Assembly: GCF_006345805.1 (NCBI RefSeq)
Contig: NW_021829861.1
Coordinates: 1 to 5,616, forward strand
Direction: 5' to 3'
Length of the DNA: 5,616 nucleotides
Origin: Octopus sinensis
Lineage: Eukaryota
Below, one piece after another: positions 1 to 5,616 of this stretch (the stretch's first letter is position 1; every line of letters begins with the position of its first letter). A program made the position numbers and the translations under genes. The notes below the pieces were generated by a model, which did not search any database, was not told the DNA's origin, and saw nothing but the letters and a program-made list of their open reading frames with translations.

Positions 1-371
1 ACCGACCACACATTATACTATTATTCCGTTGTACATTTTACTCCTGAGAGCTCACGATTTCACTCGCTCCGCTTAATTATATAAGAGCGAACAACGACCT
101 TTTGCCAAGGTTCTCAAAGAAACTTCTACCAGGGTACTTAACACCCAATTACCAATCTTAAAATACTCGTTTTCCCCAAATAAAGCAGTTTTCTGTGTAT
201 GATCTACCTTCGTTGTAATCACAATTTCTTCTACTAATTTCTTAAACATTTTTGTTCATTCTGCCAGTGCCCCTTCAATTACTGGTATGTCAGTTACATT
301 CTTCATTTCCCCACATTCGTCAACCTCATTTCTTAGAGGTTTGCAGTTCTCAATATTTTTTCAGTTCTGAA

Positions 372-463
372 GGCGGCGAGCTGGCAGAATCATTAGCACG
401 CCGGGCGAAATGCTTAACAGTATTTTGTCTGTTTGAGCCCCTTCTCAAAAATTTCGGGCCTTG
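372..463 (+). mobile_element. tRNA-derived SINE remnant (head joined to a tail-like piece, B box missing), antisense within LINE copy 1
   Basis: GC-rich island GGCGGCGAGCTGGCAGAATCATTAGCACGCCGGGCGAAATGC with an A-box-like TGGCAGAATC interrupts LINE homology. No GTTCRA B box follows. It resembles the head of abundant octopus tRNA-SINEs (from memory, not searched). Confidence 0.7.
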
Positions 464-686
464 ACACATGTCATTGAAGCATGGACGTAGCAGCGAACTT
501 ACACAAGTCTCTAAGTCTTGTTTCTTAAATGATCTTCGGAGTGTTACATTTTCAGTTGGCATCATGTTGTTATTTCTAACAGCAACAACCAAAGTTTCAA
601 TCAACATTCTATGATCACTTCTAGACATACAATTTATCGACATCGCTTTTAGGGTACAGTTCCTTGTTCATTCTCATTCCTTTCTT

Positions 687-688
<2 letters not shown>

Positions 689-723
<35 letters not shown>

Positions 724-764
724 ATCTCTCTCTCTATCTATCTATCATCTATCTATCTATCTCT
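689..764. repeat. Compound (TC)n/(TCTA)n microsatellite inside the LINE coding region
   Basis: Directly visible between the WAVSLIRY and RKGMRMNKELYPK segments. Confidence 0.97.
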
Positions 765-777
765 AACAACTCCTACA

Positions 778-1757
778 ATATCGTATTAAAGAGACAGCCC
801 ACATATTTATTGCTCTGATCTTGTCCTTTCCGTTAAGTCCAATCTTCATAACAGATATTTGCATCAACATCCTTAACTCACTCGTTGTCGGGTAGTTCTA
901 CACCACCAGATAACATTTCTTTTCCTTTTTTATTCATAAGTATACCACACTTTTTAATTATCAATCCCACCCCGAAATCCTTACTCAATATACGCACTGT
1001 TGAAACCGAACCATTTATTTCACACTCAATATTACCGATGATCTTTACGACATCTATATGCGACAGGGGATTCAACCTTTCTTCACTTTTGTAGTGTGTA
1101 AACTGATGCCAATTTCCGTAATATATGCATGATGAAAATCATGCAAATCACAAGCAGCAAAGGTGACAAATTATCTCCCTGAAATATGTCCCCCACAGGA
1201 TGTTTCTTTTATTTATATTCCAGATCTTCATTGATCTCCTGATAAAATTAAAGGTGTTATCAGATACCTGTAACAACTAAAGACTTTCTAAAATACAAAA
1301 ATGGGAGAACTTTCTATAAGCTTTCTTATAATTGACCCCTAGTATACCCGAGTTAGTACGTATTTTCTTACAATCATTCAGCACCATTCCGTCAATCAGA
1401 TGTTGATCTTTTGTCCTCCGGCTTTTGGCCCTTGTATCCCTTCTATGCCACTGGTCATTCCTTTTTAGGAAGTAGTTATATATCGCATTACCTTTGCCAT
1501 AACCCTTTTGGCAAAGAATCGTTTTCCCTTTTGTCATCCACTTCGGGATTTCCACACCATTGTTGACCCTTTCATCCATTTGGCCAGCTAGTACTCTTGT
1601 ACTCCATATGGACGTTGAATTTCCAGTTTGGAACCTTTGTTGTCTGTTCGGTTACCATTTCAGCTGTTATCCTTATATCATTTCGTTTAACTCCCTTTTT
1701 CTCCCATCTTAATTCCTCCAAACATTTACCATCTTTCTTATCCTGCATGTTATTCAT
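778..1757 (-). pseudogene. Reverse transcriptase domain remnant of LINE copy 1 (non-functional)
   Basis: ORFs 1572..1757, 1277..1579 and 878..1075 are frame-shifted pieces of one RT. FQGD lies at 1173-1184. The catalytic segment expected as LNHLLFMDDLK reads LNPLSHIDVVK, so one Asp is lost. The YRPI..L segment expected after GNAIYNY is deleted. Confidence 0.88.
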
Positions 1758-2333
1758 TTATCCTAGATGTTATTCTATCAGATTTCTCACCGCTGTTAAC
1801 ATTTCCGTTCAGTTGCTGATAAATCCTTTTATGATCTTATAAGAACAACCAATTGATCTTAAATTGTTCAATTCTTTGATTATATCTCTTAATTCATGTA
1901 ACTTCAGCCTGCAGTATTTATTTCAGCTCTTCAAAGTCTACATTTAATCCCCTTTTTACTTGATCATATATTTACCTTCTAGTTCCAGACATTTCTCTTT
2001 CTTCCTCATTTCACCTTGTTTCTTCTCAGGATGTTGATATTATTTCATAGATCGTTCATTGATTCCTTTAACCATTCTTTCCCGCCAAGGCCTTTACGCA
2101 TCATGGAATGCTTCGTAGTTTCGTTCAAGACTTATTTTTCTTCCTCAGTAAATGACACAAGCTTTAGTCAGTCTATTGGTTCCAGGCATACGCTCCGTCT
2201 TAATTTCTTTCAGTATTTTTATTCACATTCCGTGCCCACCCACTGGGCAACATTCTATCCACTTTCTTAAATCCATTTACCTTAACATCCAGATTTTTCT
2301 CAATGATACCAGTAATATCTTCGATCATTCTTC

Positions 2334-2895
2334 TGTTTTGCGTAGGATGTGTGCAGTGTCTAGCAGTGCTATTTTCTGTATTTTATATATACTTGTTAGT
2401 TCTGGTGATTTTGTTATGTATTTCTCTGAATATTTTTTTATCATAACGGCGGTGCATCAGCTGAAACCAGAGAAAAAAAATACCTAATTACGACAGAAAT
2501 TGTTTCTATTTTTAGATTCCACATTTCCAGGTGTTTGTATTTTGAAAGTTTCTCCATTTCATTTAGAGAAACGTTGCCATCTTTAGGTATTGATACATAA
2601 ATTAGAAACCATAATTTTTTTCATGATCTCTGACAACTATATCTGGACTATTGGCCTTAATTTCTCTGTGTGTATTGGTATATGCCATAGTATGGTTGCT
2701 TTCTCATTTTCTGTGACCTTTTCTGGCTTGTACCTATACCATCTTTTTTTCTGTTGTTATTCCATAGTGTTGGCACAGCTTCCAGTGTATGTAGCTCCCA
2801 GCTCTGTCGTGTCTGTGAATATATTCCTTCTTAGCTAGAACTGGGCAGCCAGAGACAATATGAGTTATTGTTTCGTGTCAATATCCATCTCCACC
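2334..2895 (-). mobile_element. Second RT+REL-class LINE fragment (copy 2): end of CCHC zinc knuckle plus restriction-like endonuclease domain to the ORF C-terminus
   Basis: Minus-strand translation, joined across small frameshifts: ETITHIVSGCPVLAKKEYIHRHDRAGSYIHWKLCQHYGITTEK..WYRYKPEKVTENEKATILWHIPIH..REIKANSPDIVVRDHEK..VSIPKDGNVSLNEMEKLSKYKHLE..MWNLKIETISVV..LGMIKKYSEKYITKSPELTSIYKIQKIALLDTAHILRKT. RHD is at 2806-2814 and NSPD (expected NRPD) at 2641-2652. Confidence 0.92.
2446..2479 (+). mobile_element. 34 bp A-tailed insertion (probable SINE 3' remnant) in LINE copy 2
   Basis: ACGGCGGTGCATCAGCTGAAACCAGAGAAAAAAA is flanked by ATA (2443-2445 and 2480-2482). Removing it plus one ATA restores TTA GGT ATG ATA AAA AAA (LGMIKK) on the minus strand. 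Confidence 0.6.
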
Positions 2896-2901
2896 CCTAC
2901 C

Positions 2902-3002
2902 TTATTATCATCATCACCATCATCATCATTATTATTATTATTAATATTGTTATTATTATTATTACTATTATTATTATTGTTATTATTATTATTATCATTA
3001 TT
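2902..3002. repeat. Imperfect (ATT)n/(ATC)n microsatellite; probable (AAT)n 3' tail of the 3003-3543 element
   Basis: Directly visible. It abuts the 3003-3543 element and lies a few bases from the truncated 5' end of LINE copy 2. Confidence 0.95.
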
Positions 3003-3543
3003 GAGTGAGAGAGCAGTTCATGCCATCAAAGTGACACTGGGGTAAAATATACGAAGCCCAATATACCCATCATGACTACCCGTCTGATAAAGGTACCCAG
3101 GCACATGCATCACAACCATATGTGCGCGACATGGTGATCTCATATCAAGATAAACAGCACATGACCTTGCAGGTGGGGCCCAGTTAGAATTTTCTTCAGG
3201 TTGAGTAGCCCATCCTGCTCAAACGGTCCCTGAATAAGGGTTGCTTTAGGATGTTGAACGAAACACCTATGTTTCCAGAGGTGAACCATTCAAACTCCAA
3301 AGAATCCCTCTCAACACATGGCCATGATGCTCCCCCACTACTTCTGCTCGTGATCAGAGATACACATATCGTCAGCCACTAATGGACATGCTCAACTGGT
3401 TAAGGTCAAACAACTGACAAGCAAATCTGTGGTATTGAGCAGAATATTTGCTGTAGCCCATCTTTTATACCAAGACAAAACAATGTACATGATAACACTT
3501 CCAATCAGTTAAGATCAGAAGCCATGAGAGCCAATGCCTGGTA
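3003..3543 (-). mobile_element. ~540 bp non-coding interspersed repeat (non-autonomous retroposon or LINE UTR derivative) embedded between (AAT)n tracts
   Basis: Sharp boundaries at ATT tracts on both sides, higher GC than the flanks, and no ORF in the track. It resembles a repeat recalled from octopus genomes. Orientation is inferred from the (AAT)n tail and a hairpin that pairs fully (G-U) only on the minus strand. Confidence 0.65.
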
Positions 3544-3556
3544 ATCATTATTATTA

Positions 3557-3619
<63 letters not shown>

Positions 3620-3624
3620 GATTA

Positions 3625-3683
<59 letters not shown>
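3544..3683. repeat. (ATT)n microsatellite, ~140 bp
   Basis: Directly visible; source of the poly-Ile ORF 3534..3737. Confidence 0.98.
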
Positions 3684-3798
3684 GTAACAAATAATATGTA
3701 TAGCAAATCAGAAATCAATTACGCCGATAAGCGATAGACACGCAACTCCAAGCGATAAGAGAAAGCAATTCGAGATTTCAGTGCTACACTAAACGTAA

Positions 3799-3799
3799 A

Positions 3800-3839
<40 letters not shown>
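3799..3839. repeat. (AC)n microsatellite
   Basis: Directly visible. Confidence 0.97.
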
Positions 3840-3841
<2 letters not shown>

Positions 3842-3998
3842 ACATTTGTGTTTTTCTTATACCTACCGACCATATAGAGCCAGCCCTGAGTTGGATGTAC
3901 GGTTAAAATTGGATTTGGTACTTATATCTCTACGATATCCTACCAACACATGAAACCTCAGGGTTGTTTTTTATCAAGCCAATCTGTATCCTACCTAA

Positions 3999-4070
3999 TC
4001 TCTCCCCCCATCTCTCCTCTTCTCTCACCTCTCTCTCTCTCTCTCGACTCTCTCTCCTCTCCTCTCCCTC

Positions 4071-4115
<45 letters not shown>

Positions 4116-4134
4116 TATAGATATATATTATATA
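3999..4134. repeat. Imperfect (CT)n tract (3999-4070) followed by (TA)n tract (4071-4134)
   Basis: Directly visible. Confidence 0.95.
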
Positions 4135-4140
4135 ATTTTT

Positions 4141-4387
4141 TGAATTGAAGAAATGAGTTGAACGAAGATTGGCCATGGGCTCTTAGGAGCCTCTTCGATT
4201 TGTTTTGCTCCGCCTCTGTTCTGTTTTTGTTTTTTCCAACGGATTTCCTATTTCTTCCTGAAGAGAAAGACACAATATGGTCTCCTTATTCAATCGGAAT
4301 TTGGTAAATTGTGCCTTTCGAAACACGTGTAGAATGCAATAAAACGATTTCTGTTCAATCTTCGTTCAACTCCATTTCTTCAATTCA
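4141..4387. repeat. Inverted repeat, arms 4141-4171 and 4356-4387
   Basis: TGAATTGAAGAAATG-AGTTGAACGAAGATTG versus reverse complement TGAATTGAAGAAATGGAGTTGAACGAAGATTG: identical except for a 1 nt indel. Confidence 0.95.
4255..4334 (+). ncRNA. Minimal type I hammerhead ribozyme (Penelope-like element type)
   Basis: Stem I UUC(4255-57)/GAA(4332-34); core CUGAAGA 4258-4264; stem II GAAAGACACAAU(4265-76)/AUUGUGCCUUUC(4308-19) with 11 of 12 pairs; GAAA 4320-4323; stem III A-U plus C-G closing the palindromic loop ACGU; cleavage triplet GUA 4329-4331. Confidence 0.8.
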
Positions 4388-4543
4388 CTAATAATATTAA
4401 AATTCAATTATCCGCACCAACGCACGGTTGCAACACCATATGGTTGTACCTCCAACCGTGCTGTCTTCTGCTGTGATTTTTGCTACCAGGTACCGGTTAA
4501 CTTTTTGATTACTGCAACAAGATTATTCATCTTTCTATTTCAC

Positions 4544-4544
<1 letters not shown>

Positions 4545-4606
<62 letters not shown>

Positions 4607-4634
4607 CATTCCGTTATATATATATATATATATA
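4545..4634. repeat. (TA)n tracts (4545-4606 and 4615-4634)
   Basis: Directly visible. Confidence 0.97.
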
Positions 4635-4730
4635 ACGGGAAGGTATACGAAAATAGACAAAAGACGATGGCAGGTGGAGTACAAACAAACAATGTATTAG
4701 TATGGCACTCAGGAATAGAAATAAAAGAAG

Positions 4731-4768
4731 TCTTTTACGTTTCGAGTCTACGCTCTTCGATAGAAAGA
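4731..4768 (-). ncRNA. Hammerhead-like motif with non-canonical core
   Basis: Minus strand reads UCUUU CUAUCGAA GAG CGUAGA CUC GAAA CG UA AAAGA: a 5 bp stem I, 3 bp stem II, GAAA, ACGU palindrome and GUA triplet, but CUAUCGAA replaces CUGANGA. Confidence 0.45.
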
Positions 4769-4819
4769 TACACAGAAAAGAAACAAGGAGAGAAAAAAAT
4801 TGCGTGTAGGGACTAAAAA

Positions 4820-4930
4820 AAACGTACACGCAGGACAGACACAGAAGGACCTTCGTTCTTCATCAGTTATCAACCGAATGATAATGCTCCGTTTCTATGG
4901 TCCCTCTGTGTCTGTCCTACGTCTACGTTT
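4820..4930. repeat. Inverted repeat, arms 4820-4851 and 4899-4930 (29/32 match, 47 nt spacer)
   Basis: AAACGTACACGCAGGACAGACACAGAAGGACC versus reverse complement AAACGTAGACGTAGGACAGACACAGAGGGACC. Confidence 0.95.
4860..4895 (-). ncRNA. Permuted (type II-like) hammerhead-like motif, probably mutated
   Basis: Minus strand reads GAAA CGGAGCA UUAUCA uucggu UGAUAA CUGAUGA: perfect core halves and a 6 bp closed stem I, but the triplet is GCA rather than NUH and the first stem II pair is not canonical. Confidence 0.45.
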
Positions 4931-5013
4931 CTTTAACTATCGTTTATTTAATGCATTTTTCATTTATTGAGTAACTGAATGCCACGCATTCCGACTTTTG
5001 TTCCAAGTTAGTT

Positions 5014-5014
5014 T

Positions 5015-5054
<40 letters not shown>

Positions 5055-5122
5055 AATGAGATTATATATGTGTGGGGTGTGTGTGTCTGTGACATATATA
5101 TATATATATACACTTTATATAT
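5014..5122. repeat. (TA)n tract with interspersed (TG)n and short (TA)n runs
   Basis: Directly visible. Confidence 0.93.
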
Positions 5123-5204
5123 AGACATAGCTCAGCTGTGAATACTGCACCAGACTGTTTATTAGTTCTGAAATTCTAAAAAATATTTCATTAATTTATC
5201 AAAT

Positions 5205-5580
5205 CTTATCTCTGTTCTTTTTTTCTTTCGTTTTTATTTAATTAAATTTATTCTCCCTCTTCATTCCTTCTTTTCTTTCCTTCTCTATTTTCTAACATCG
5301 TCGTTTCATTCTCTCATAGATTAATCCTTCTCTCATAATTTCTTCCCCGATTCTTCATCTTTTTTTTCCTTTTTCTTTTTTGCTTCTTTCGCTTTTTCTT
5401 TCCCCTCCCACCTCTCTTTTTCCCTGTCTCTATTTTCTTTTTTTTGGTTAATTTTTTTTCATTGTCTTTTGAATTTTTTTATTCTTAAATATTCTTATTT
5501 TTTTAAAGTTTTTCGCATTTTTTTCTCGATTATTTTTCTTCACTTTCTCATTTTTCATTCTCTTCTTGTTCCTCTTCCTT
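5205..5580. repeat. Pyrimidine-rich (T/C) low-complexity region
   Basis: Strong T/C strand bias with poly-T runs and no clear period. Confidence 0.85.
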
Positions 5581-5616
5581 CTCCTCATCGACCTCATCCT
5601 CCTCATCGACCTCATC
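5581..5616. repeat. 18 bp tandem repeat, two perfect copies, cut by the window edge
   Basis: CTCCTCATCGACCTCATC at 5581-5598 and 5599-5616. Confidence 0.9.

Follow-up and report, generated by a model that had tools for sequence, protein, structure and literature searches.

Why do three hammerhead-like ribozyme motifs of different architecture lie together within about 870 bp of octopus DNA, among inverted duplications and (TA)n repeats? This question is raised by positions 4141-5013 of a 5,616-nt stretch of Octopus sinensis contig NW_021829861.1 (assembly GCF_006345805.1, positions 1 to 5,616 of the forward strand; hereafter the window), which comes from a 2.72-Gb animal genome rich in microsatellites. 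An initial annotation of the window had described one canonical type I motif, one core-variant type I motif and one permuted motif, and had ascribed them to short non-autonomous retroelements, possibly a poorly described retrozyme-like system. That observation is partly confirmed here, and its interpretation is partly supported. We consider it highly probable that the segment is a (TA)n microsatellite that has received at least three Penelope-type insertions, likely by target-primed reverse transcription. It is a pile-up of broken Penelope-type copies and short, protein-free hitch-hikers, an assemblage of a known kind and not a new system.

Four repeat blocks between three (TA)n tracts

The segment is made of four repeat blocks set between three (TA)n tracts. 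Tandem Repeats Finder (TRF) places a target tract at the left border (4074-4134; period 2, 31.5 copies) and another tract at the right border (5014-5051); the one between them (4545-4634), delimited by TRF and by reading of the sequence, is interrupted at 4607-4616 by CATTCCGTTA. The (TA)n borders first reported are thus real. All four blocks proved to be multi-copy in genome searches, as the initial annotation had supposed: block A (4141-4387) with at least 1844 candidates at 95-100% identity, block B (4388-4544) with at least 1060 at 96%, block C1 (4635-4816) with at least 4041 at about 95%, and block C2 (4817-5013) with at least 537 at about 80%, covering query positions 80-197. These copy counts are first-look candidates, 40 of them scored per genome search, and all are lower bounds. 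Inspection of open reading frames (ORFs) in 4141-5013 found no long ORF of reverse transcriptase (RT) or endonuclease character, in agreement with the earlier description.

Two inverted repeats of about 32 bp, also noticed at the outset, are present as well. The first pairs 4141-4171 with 4356-4387 in two exact pieces (15 and 17 nt), and the second pairs 4816-4851 with 4899-4934 (36 nt, 89%). The initial annotation saw them enclosing two of the ribozyme modules, of which they are no part; they are head-to-head arms produced by Penelope-type insertion.

A two-armed copy of a Penelope-like element

The first insertion begins with a short inverted arm on the minus strand (4141-4171), which is the reverse complement of the element 3' end at 4356-4387. 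This arrangement, with its 31-nt short arm, recurs at loci L002-L005 with 95-97% identity. On the plus strand there follows a 5'-truncated 3' untranslated region (UTR) of a Hydra-clade Penelope-like element (PLE), the A family, which extends to a 'short' end site (4172-4397). The plus-strand tail B (4398-4544) is the start of the next tandem unit, that is, the element's 5' UTR, and ends at a 'long' end site. Upstream of 4172, contigs from RNA runs continue into unrelated sequence internal to the element. Of 21 5' regions inspected, 9 have B immediately ahead of the ORF, with a piece of A of variable extent in front of B; one of them is that of locus L121 (B at 785-981, ahead of an ORF of 908 aa). 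This makes the A|B boundary a partial-tandem junction and B a 147-nt tail.

Many A copies form inverted pairs, 0.2-4 kb apart, with an RT-like ORF (FDIASFYPSI, YRDD) and a GIY-YIG-like ORF between them. Of 39 distinct arms, all but one stop at one of two sites, about 4397 (22 arms) or 4544 (16 arms). The two ends are also paired in a regular way: at other loci a short-ended arm faces a long-ended one in 15 of 16 head-to-head pairs, and the window copy conforms. Upstream partial copies start at 4172 or beyond (three cases), 4255, 4287, 4312, 4346, 4392 and 4488. In view of this scatter, the idea that full-length copies start at the hammerhead cleavage site was rejected; the predicted cut, 4331|4332, coincides neither with the insertion ends nor with the 5' starts.

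The ends adjoin TA repeats in 21 of 22 short-ended and 16 of 16 long-ended arms, and the same holds for 23 of 26 C1 ends and 16 of 21 C2 ends, against a background of 11% of random 20-mers in the same loci. The enrichment of (TA)n at the flanks, which the initial annotation had anticipated, is thus borne out for all of these families.

Both end sites are UA-rich in the template. We propose that the element endonuclease would nick (TA)n and that the freed 3' ends would prime on UA-rich patches of the RNA, at 4388-4397 for the short end and near 4544 for the long end; priming at both sites would yield a short-ended and a long-ended arm, head to head. Of the three insertions, the first is a two-armed, 5'-truncated copy of the 3' UTR and tail of an autonomous Hydra-clade PLE, the second a copy of the ~202-bp non-coding family C1, and the third a two-armed copy of the non-coding family C2 (up to ~0.9 kb), fused to C1. 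The hammerhead, with its predicted cut in the sense transcript after A4331, would likely serve to trim tandem or read-through transcripts and would have no part in setting where the inserted DNA ends. The short-plus-long rule, together with a tail that is the element's own 5' UTR, constrains models of Penelope integration.

An autonomous parent of the Hydra clade

With 14058 first-look candidates, a protein search of the genome yielded at least 104 RT matches at E<=1e-30, whose open frames reach 923 aa. The L121 element carries a single 908-aa ORF with the motifs SDKT, FDIASFYPSI, Y(R/P)DD, VYQCKV..YVGASSSRL, CNLC..E and N..CPH; DKG is replaced by DKT (VQSDKTRNTYKL), and the ORF's GIY-YIG-like core, VYQCKVYTDSDVYSYVGASSS, contains a single C and no CCHH. 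A database search recovered 525 homologues of this parent ORF, mostly of 600-690 aa. Their alignment displays RMRWK, ADKT, a CNCRx5C (CNCRxKxxC) linker, a GIY-YIG core without CC/CCHH, and CxxC and CxH around a conserved E and N. At the level of motifs, the parent ORF is colinear with 32 homologues, and also with the Hydra alignment printed in PMC8557442; it has gained an asparagine/serine (N/S)-rich insert and lost the CxC linker. Two public gene models that match the parent ORF, P0003 and P0012, are named 'myb-like protein I' and 'GATA zinc finger domain-containing protein 14-like'. These names probably arise from the low-complexity N/S-rich insert, and the models look like misnamed retroelement ORFs.

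These motifs place block A/B within the Hydra clade already described, as a family both new and divergent. The partner with RT- and GIY-YIG-like motifs and shared termini that the initial annotation had envisaged exists for the first block, which itself stems from an autonomous element and does not belong to a short non-autonomous family. The annotation had also allowed that a match to described Penelope pseudo-long terminal repeats (pseudo-LTRs) would remove the novelty and leave the identity intact, and this applies to the first block. What the family adds is a young, abundant Hydra-like lineage, with an ORF of ~900 aa and without the zinc-finger-like linker, that still lands in (TA)n. Insertion into (TA)n despite loss of the linker argues against the linker mediating (TA)n targeting, as had been proposed.

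A canonical type I hammerhead in the 3' UTR

The canonical type I motif, motif 1, lies at 4255-4334 on the plus strand, where it was identified by descriptor search and followed through copies, relatives, covariation and a dimer fold. It reads UUC-CUGAAGA-[helix II]-GAA-ACACGUGU-A|GAA. Helix I pairs 4255-4257 with 4332-4334; the box CUGAAGA occupies 4258-4264; helix II (4265-4319) has 12 bp, including one A.C mismatch, and a 31-nt apical part; GAA stands at 4320-4322 (GAAA at 4320-4323); and helix III is the palindrome ACACGUGU at 4323-4330. The CUGANGA and GAAA boxes are in type I order, and the sense transcript is predicted to be cut after A4331. With a descriptor modelled on the hammerhead table S2 of Craig et al. 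(PMC8557442), motif 1 is the sole perfect-core match in the whole window, and none occurred in 300 shuffles; a laxer version gave 0.01 matches per shuffled window. CUGANGA alone is at chance level in the window (5 seen against 2.5 expected, with 5 or more in 23 of 200 shuffles).

Motif 1 is intact in 57 of 61 distinct A-family copies. A stronger indication comes from diverged relatives, whose RTs are 74-85% identical: 14 of 15 hold a canonical hammerhead at the equivalent place in the 3' UTR. With 15 sequences aligned, the share of paired cells is 90.4%, compared with 34-47% when the partners are slid. Two-sided changes occur at six pairs, of which five belong to helix II, and the covariation score was equalled in 0 of 500 shuffles. 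The central pair of the helix III palindrome covaries too (UA 9, UG 4, CG 1). Because a hairpin without a loop is impossible, this covariation indicates pairing between two molecules. A predicted co-fold agrees, giving -40.7 kcal/mol for a dimer with an 8-bp intermolecular helix III versus -30.8 (2 x -15.4) for the monomers. Motif 1 is thus a well-supported hammerhead, conserved with covariation across diverged subfamilies and predicted to cut itself; a dimer joined by the palindromic helix III is the form in which it would most probably do so. The covarying central pair provides evidence, from sequence only, for dimer pairing in minimal hammerheads of this sort.

Six more descriptor-perfect type I hammerheads, from other families, were seen in the flanks of L002, L015, L022, L027, L038 and L103 (0.36 Mb), and a seventh at L145:43-102; all seven have a palindromic helix III. 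Such hammerheads seem to be very common in the source genome.

Motif 2 in the C1 family

The second insertion (4635-4816, minus strand) is a 5'-truncated copy of C1, a non-coding retroelement of ~202 bp. The family has a fixed 3' end, at 4635 in the window, and a variable 5' end, and target duplications are visible in some copies. A tRNA-derived short interspersed element was considered and rejected, since ARAGORN finds nothing in C1; a relationship with A or C2 was likewise rejected, there being no similarity.

Motif 2, found by descriptor search and sequence reading at 4731-4768 on the minus strand, is a hammerhead-like type I module with a deviant core. Helix I pairs 4768-4764 with 4735-4731, the core CUAUCGA lies at 4763-4757, helix II is GAG/CUC, and GAA (4743-4741) and ACGU (4740-4737) lead to the cleavage-site nucleotide A4736. 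The family sense strand reads UCUUU-CUGUCGA-A-GAG-cguagg-CUC-GAA-ACGU-A|AAAGA. In 23 of 29 C1 copies the core is CUGUCGA, with U replacing A6, in exact type I register; the window copy additionally has A replacing G5, which makes CUAUCGA with two core mismatches. Chance matches per shuffled window number 0.17 at one core mismatch or fewer and 1.3 at two or fewer, and motif 2 is therefore meaningful at family level only. Thus the core-variant motif of the initial annotation is present, but taken alone it is at chance level. Mutational work has established that the hammerhead core positions G5 and A6 are essential, and the window motif is for this reason predicted to be inactive. The C1 module is probably a decayed hammerhead, predicted inactive.

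Opposite the C1 copy, across nine TA units, the interruption CATTCCGTTA (4607-4616) is a ~10-nt inverted copy of the C1 3' terminus. The hairpin that the two form (4605-4646) gives a sub-threshold mir-1277/mir-4716 look-alike in Rfam.

Motif 3 in the C2 family

The third insertion, delimited by genome search and alignment, has an inverted arm on the minus strand (4817-4898) and a direct arm on the plus strand (4899-5013), the latter being the 3' terminal 115 nt of the element and ending in (TA)n. The 32-36 nt that the two arms share form a hairpin. The inverted arm joins the C1 copy at a shared TTAG (4816-4813), which creates a chimeric minus-strand unit. This join is absent from the 39 other matches listed in a search with 4635-5013, all of which stop at query 180-185. 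A link across the junction between CUGAUGA (4866-4860) and GAAAC (4743-4739) was accordingly rejected: the two belong to different families, and their join is unseen among the matches listed.

The C2 family is older and reaches ~0.9 kb. Eleven of its loci were sampled in search of an autonomous parent; in none of them does the family carry an ORF, and the idea was rejected. The same T-rich repeat start, TTTTTGCGAC, follows the few 3' TA units in roughly 8 out of 21 copies of C2 (among them L069, L073, L077, L081 and L082), which suggests a second element landing right behind C2 ends.

Motif 3 is a module at 4898-4836 on the minus strand in which GAAAC stands upstream of CUGAUGA. Its G block, GAAAC, lies at 4895-4891 and its C block, CUGAUGA, at 4866-4860, followed by a hairpin (4859-4843) and GUGUC (4842-4838). 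In the window, 5' truncation has left a copy that begins within GGCAY and is without the S (cleavage) block; the permuted order first noticed is therefore genuine, and the copy that displays it lacks a cleavage site. Fuller copies supply the missing part. Their 5' part reads CUCAGU-C/A|UUAUCG - UUAAA - GGCAY-GAA-ACUGAG and, after a spacer, continues CGAUAA-CUGAUGA - hairpin (AGAA..UUCU) - GUGUC, which gives the block order S-G-C and two crossing 6-bp helices, I and III. A type II reading, with a cleavage-like triplet between GAAAC and CUGAUGA, was rejected by eye, as helix II is unformed and helix I poorer. We infer that the window preserves part of a block-permuted hammerhead-like fold and that this truncated copy could not cut itself here. 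That the C2 family carries a working hammerhead, with cleavage site, GAAA and CUGANGA in this order and an extra hairpin in the core, we put forward tentatively, as a possibility that falls somewhat short of an even chance.

Being short and non-coding, C1 and C2 must be mobilised by something else; this part of the initial proposal, mobilisation in trans, holds for these two blocks. They are new non-coding families, and the enzymes on which they depend are presumably of Penelope type.

Alternative readings

The alternative that fares best, and to which we give an even chance, is that motif 1 is the only ribozyme of the three, with the C1 and C2 motifs being look-alikes that arose by decay or rearrangement and have no fold under selection. 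For C1, this reading draws on the departure of the core from CUGANGA at an essential position and on the chance rates given above. In contrast, helices I (5 bp), II (3 bp) and III of C1 stand in exact register around the boxes, and the module occupies the usual position of PLE hammerheads. For C2, several features weaken the S-G-C interpretation. GGCAY pairs with GUGUC beside GAAA, and a 17-nt hairpin parts GUGUC, and with it the GAAA-side helix, from CUGAUGA; these two extra helices (the hairpin and GGCAY/GUGUC) show one-sided changes only; the main switch from A/U to G/C in helix I follows two subfamilies and may be a single event; and all five copies that match the S-G-C descriptor, against 0.1 per shuffled set, come from this one family. 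Against the look-alike reading, 89.7% of cells are paired in an alignment of 17 C2 copies, compared with 34-41% when slid, and four pairs (11 cells) have changed on both sides, a cell count reached in 0 of 500 shuffles (the pair count was reached in 32 of 500). The two 6-bp helices, moreover, link the cleavage triplet GUC/GUA with the two core boxes in exactly the way that the type-SGC order demands.

A second alternative is the retrozyme-like system of the initial annotation, in which the blocks would be small non-autonomous units that multiply through self-cleaved, circularised RNAs as a system of their own, and not Penelope debris. C1 and C2 do fit the profile of high-copy, non-coding elements with hammerhead-like modules, and the available part of a recent preprint (Li et al. 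2026, 10.64898/2026.07.22.740005) argues that metazoan retrozymes derive from PLE pseudo-LTRs. However, where retrozymes hold tandem hammerhead units, TRF finds no array of A, C1 or C2 in the window, and the copies sampled in other loci are single or two-armed. Block A is colinear with the 3' UTR of an ORF-bearing element, which matches the described Hydra clade (PMC8557442). Measured from the predicted cut, its insertion ends are 66 and 213 nt further downstream, and its 5' starts vary, which argues that a unit-length cleaved RNA is not the template unit here. The C1 core, finally, is deviant in most copies. We regard this alternative as improbable.

The weakest alternative, that the blocks are miniature inverted-repeat transposable elements (miniature DNA transposons) whose ~32-bp terminal inverted repeats bind a transposase, can point to the near-perfect inverted repeats at the outer ends of block A and to the shortness of the element, but is extremely unlikely, since the inverted arm varies in other loci from 31 nt to >1 kb, the 3' end of the element points outward in both arms, the 147-nt tail occurs on one arm only and leaves the ends asymmetric, the ORFs of long copies are RT- and GIY-YIG-like, with no transposase among them, and the C2 'repeat' lies at the inner ends of its two arms.

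The Penelope reading and the hammerhead assignment that goes with it also face evidence of their own that weighs against them. For the parent, Pfam searches of the ORFs and homologues (E<=0.1-1) gave no RT or GIY-YIG match, and single-sequence and profile searches of the PDB with the parent ORF gave nothing relevant; the domain identities (RT, GIY-YIG) rest accordingly on the motif-level alignment. The CxCX5C linker is absent from the window's family, which has GCSSRNKYSNSN instead, and the element is longer than the described Hydra elements. An autonomous partner of C1 or C2 was not found, either in the comparison of C1 with A and C2 or in the 11 C2 loci; block A/B is the one for which such a partner is seen. 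For motif 1, A-family copies are 95-99% alike, and their conservation alone is no evidence of selection. Its helix I has 3 bp in the window copy (5-6 bp in relatives), and shuffled sequences fold as stably as the monomer (z = -0.16). An Rfam scan of the window at E<=10 returned no hammerhead family. A scan of seven loci (E<=1) also missed six other descriptor-perfect PLE-type hammerheads, which makes the silence of Rfam weak evidence, its models being insensitive to the PLE subtype; the output of both scans consisted of sub-threshold microRNA look-alikes on hairpins and TA repeats. Lastly, contigs of four RNA runs cover 4169-4544, and some bridge 4331/4332. These contigs carry no information on ends, strand or circles and are uninformative on cleavage; of the 24 RNA runs listed, all but three wastewater metatranscriptomes are of guessed or unknown kind.

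Other parts of the window

Two further features lie outside the segment. A unique-looking block of ~540 bp (3003-3546) stands between long (ATT)n arrays at 2928-3002 and 3547-3683 and may be another microsatellite-targeted insertion. Positions 1-2900 are AT-rich and hold several open frames of 70-124 aa on both strands; the two frames scanned against Pfam, on the minus strand at 350-667 and 1277-1651, gave no match.

Comparison with known systems

The cluster itself is ordinary: Hydra-clade hammerheads, (TA)n targeting and one octopus family are already published. Craig et al. 2021 (PMC8557442) describe the hammerheads, (TA)n targeting, inverted 5'-truncated copies and tails of the Hydra clade, whose marks are RWK, DKT (for DKG), a CxCX5C linker and a GIY-YIG core without CCHH, and they list an octopus family, Hydra-1_Obim, that targets (TA)n. 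The window's family agrees with this clade in the DKT motif and in (TA)n insertion; in a sense-strand hammerhead near the 3' end with core CUGAAGAG, a 4+4 helix III and a loop of 0-1 nt, a format that matches the Hydra hammerheads of table S2; and in 5'-truncated copies, adjacent inverted copies, partial tandems and a one-sided tail. It differs in an ORF of ~900 aa with an N/S-rich insert, where homologues have roughly 600-690 aa, and in lacking the CxCX5C linker that Hydra-clade PLEs possess. Its helix II is also longer (55 nt versus 11-24 nt in the Hydra rows of table S2), as is its tail (about 147 nt versus 30-40 nt). Six exact words of 16-20 nt from A, C1 and C2 are absent from the consensus file of that paper, in which line breaks could hide a match.

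In the available part of Cervera and de la Pena 2020 (PMC7229834), PLEs and Terminons are described as carrying minimal type I hammerheads with a very short helix III that act as dimers. Motif 1 shares the type I topology, the very short helix III and, by prediction, the dimer action; it differs in that the dimer reading is here backed by covariation at the centre of the palindrome. The same portion of that paper characterises retrozymes as tandem arrays of 170-400-nt units with circular RNAs. To judge from it, the window's elements resemble metazoan non-LTR retrozymes in being short, AT-rich and non-coding, with type I hammerheads and borrowed enzymes. In contrast, the window's blocks are single, truncated and two-armed, with ends off the cleavage site. 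A 2026 survey of octopus repeats reports active Penelope-like families and many unclassified short interspersed elements, and the accessible part of it makes no mention of hammerheads.

The nearest counterpart of C2 is the type-SGC hammerhead, a non-circular permutation known from metatranscriptomes (Eckert et al. 2023, PMC10085705; comparison with the available part of the paper). Fuller C2 copies share its order of cleavage, GAAA and CUGANGA blocks, its crossing helices I and III, which form a pseudoknot, and a short linker, UUAAA in C2, from helix I to the strand leading into GAAA. They differ in the 17-nt hairpin between CUGAUGA and the strand that pairs beside GAAA, a feature that no hammerhead described in that part of the paper possesses, and in setting, C2 belonging to an animal-genome retroelement known here from its sequence; the window copy differs further in having no cleavage block. 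The truncated C2 piece thus points to a possible block-permuted hammerhead in animal retroelements. If this is true, C2 would be a non-circular permutation present in thousands of animal retroelement copies, and Penelope-dependent elements thought to be without ribozymes would carry rewired ones.

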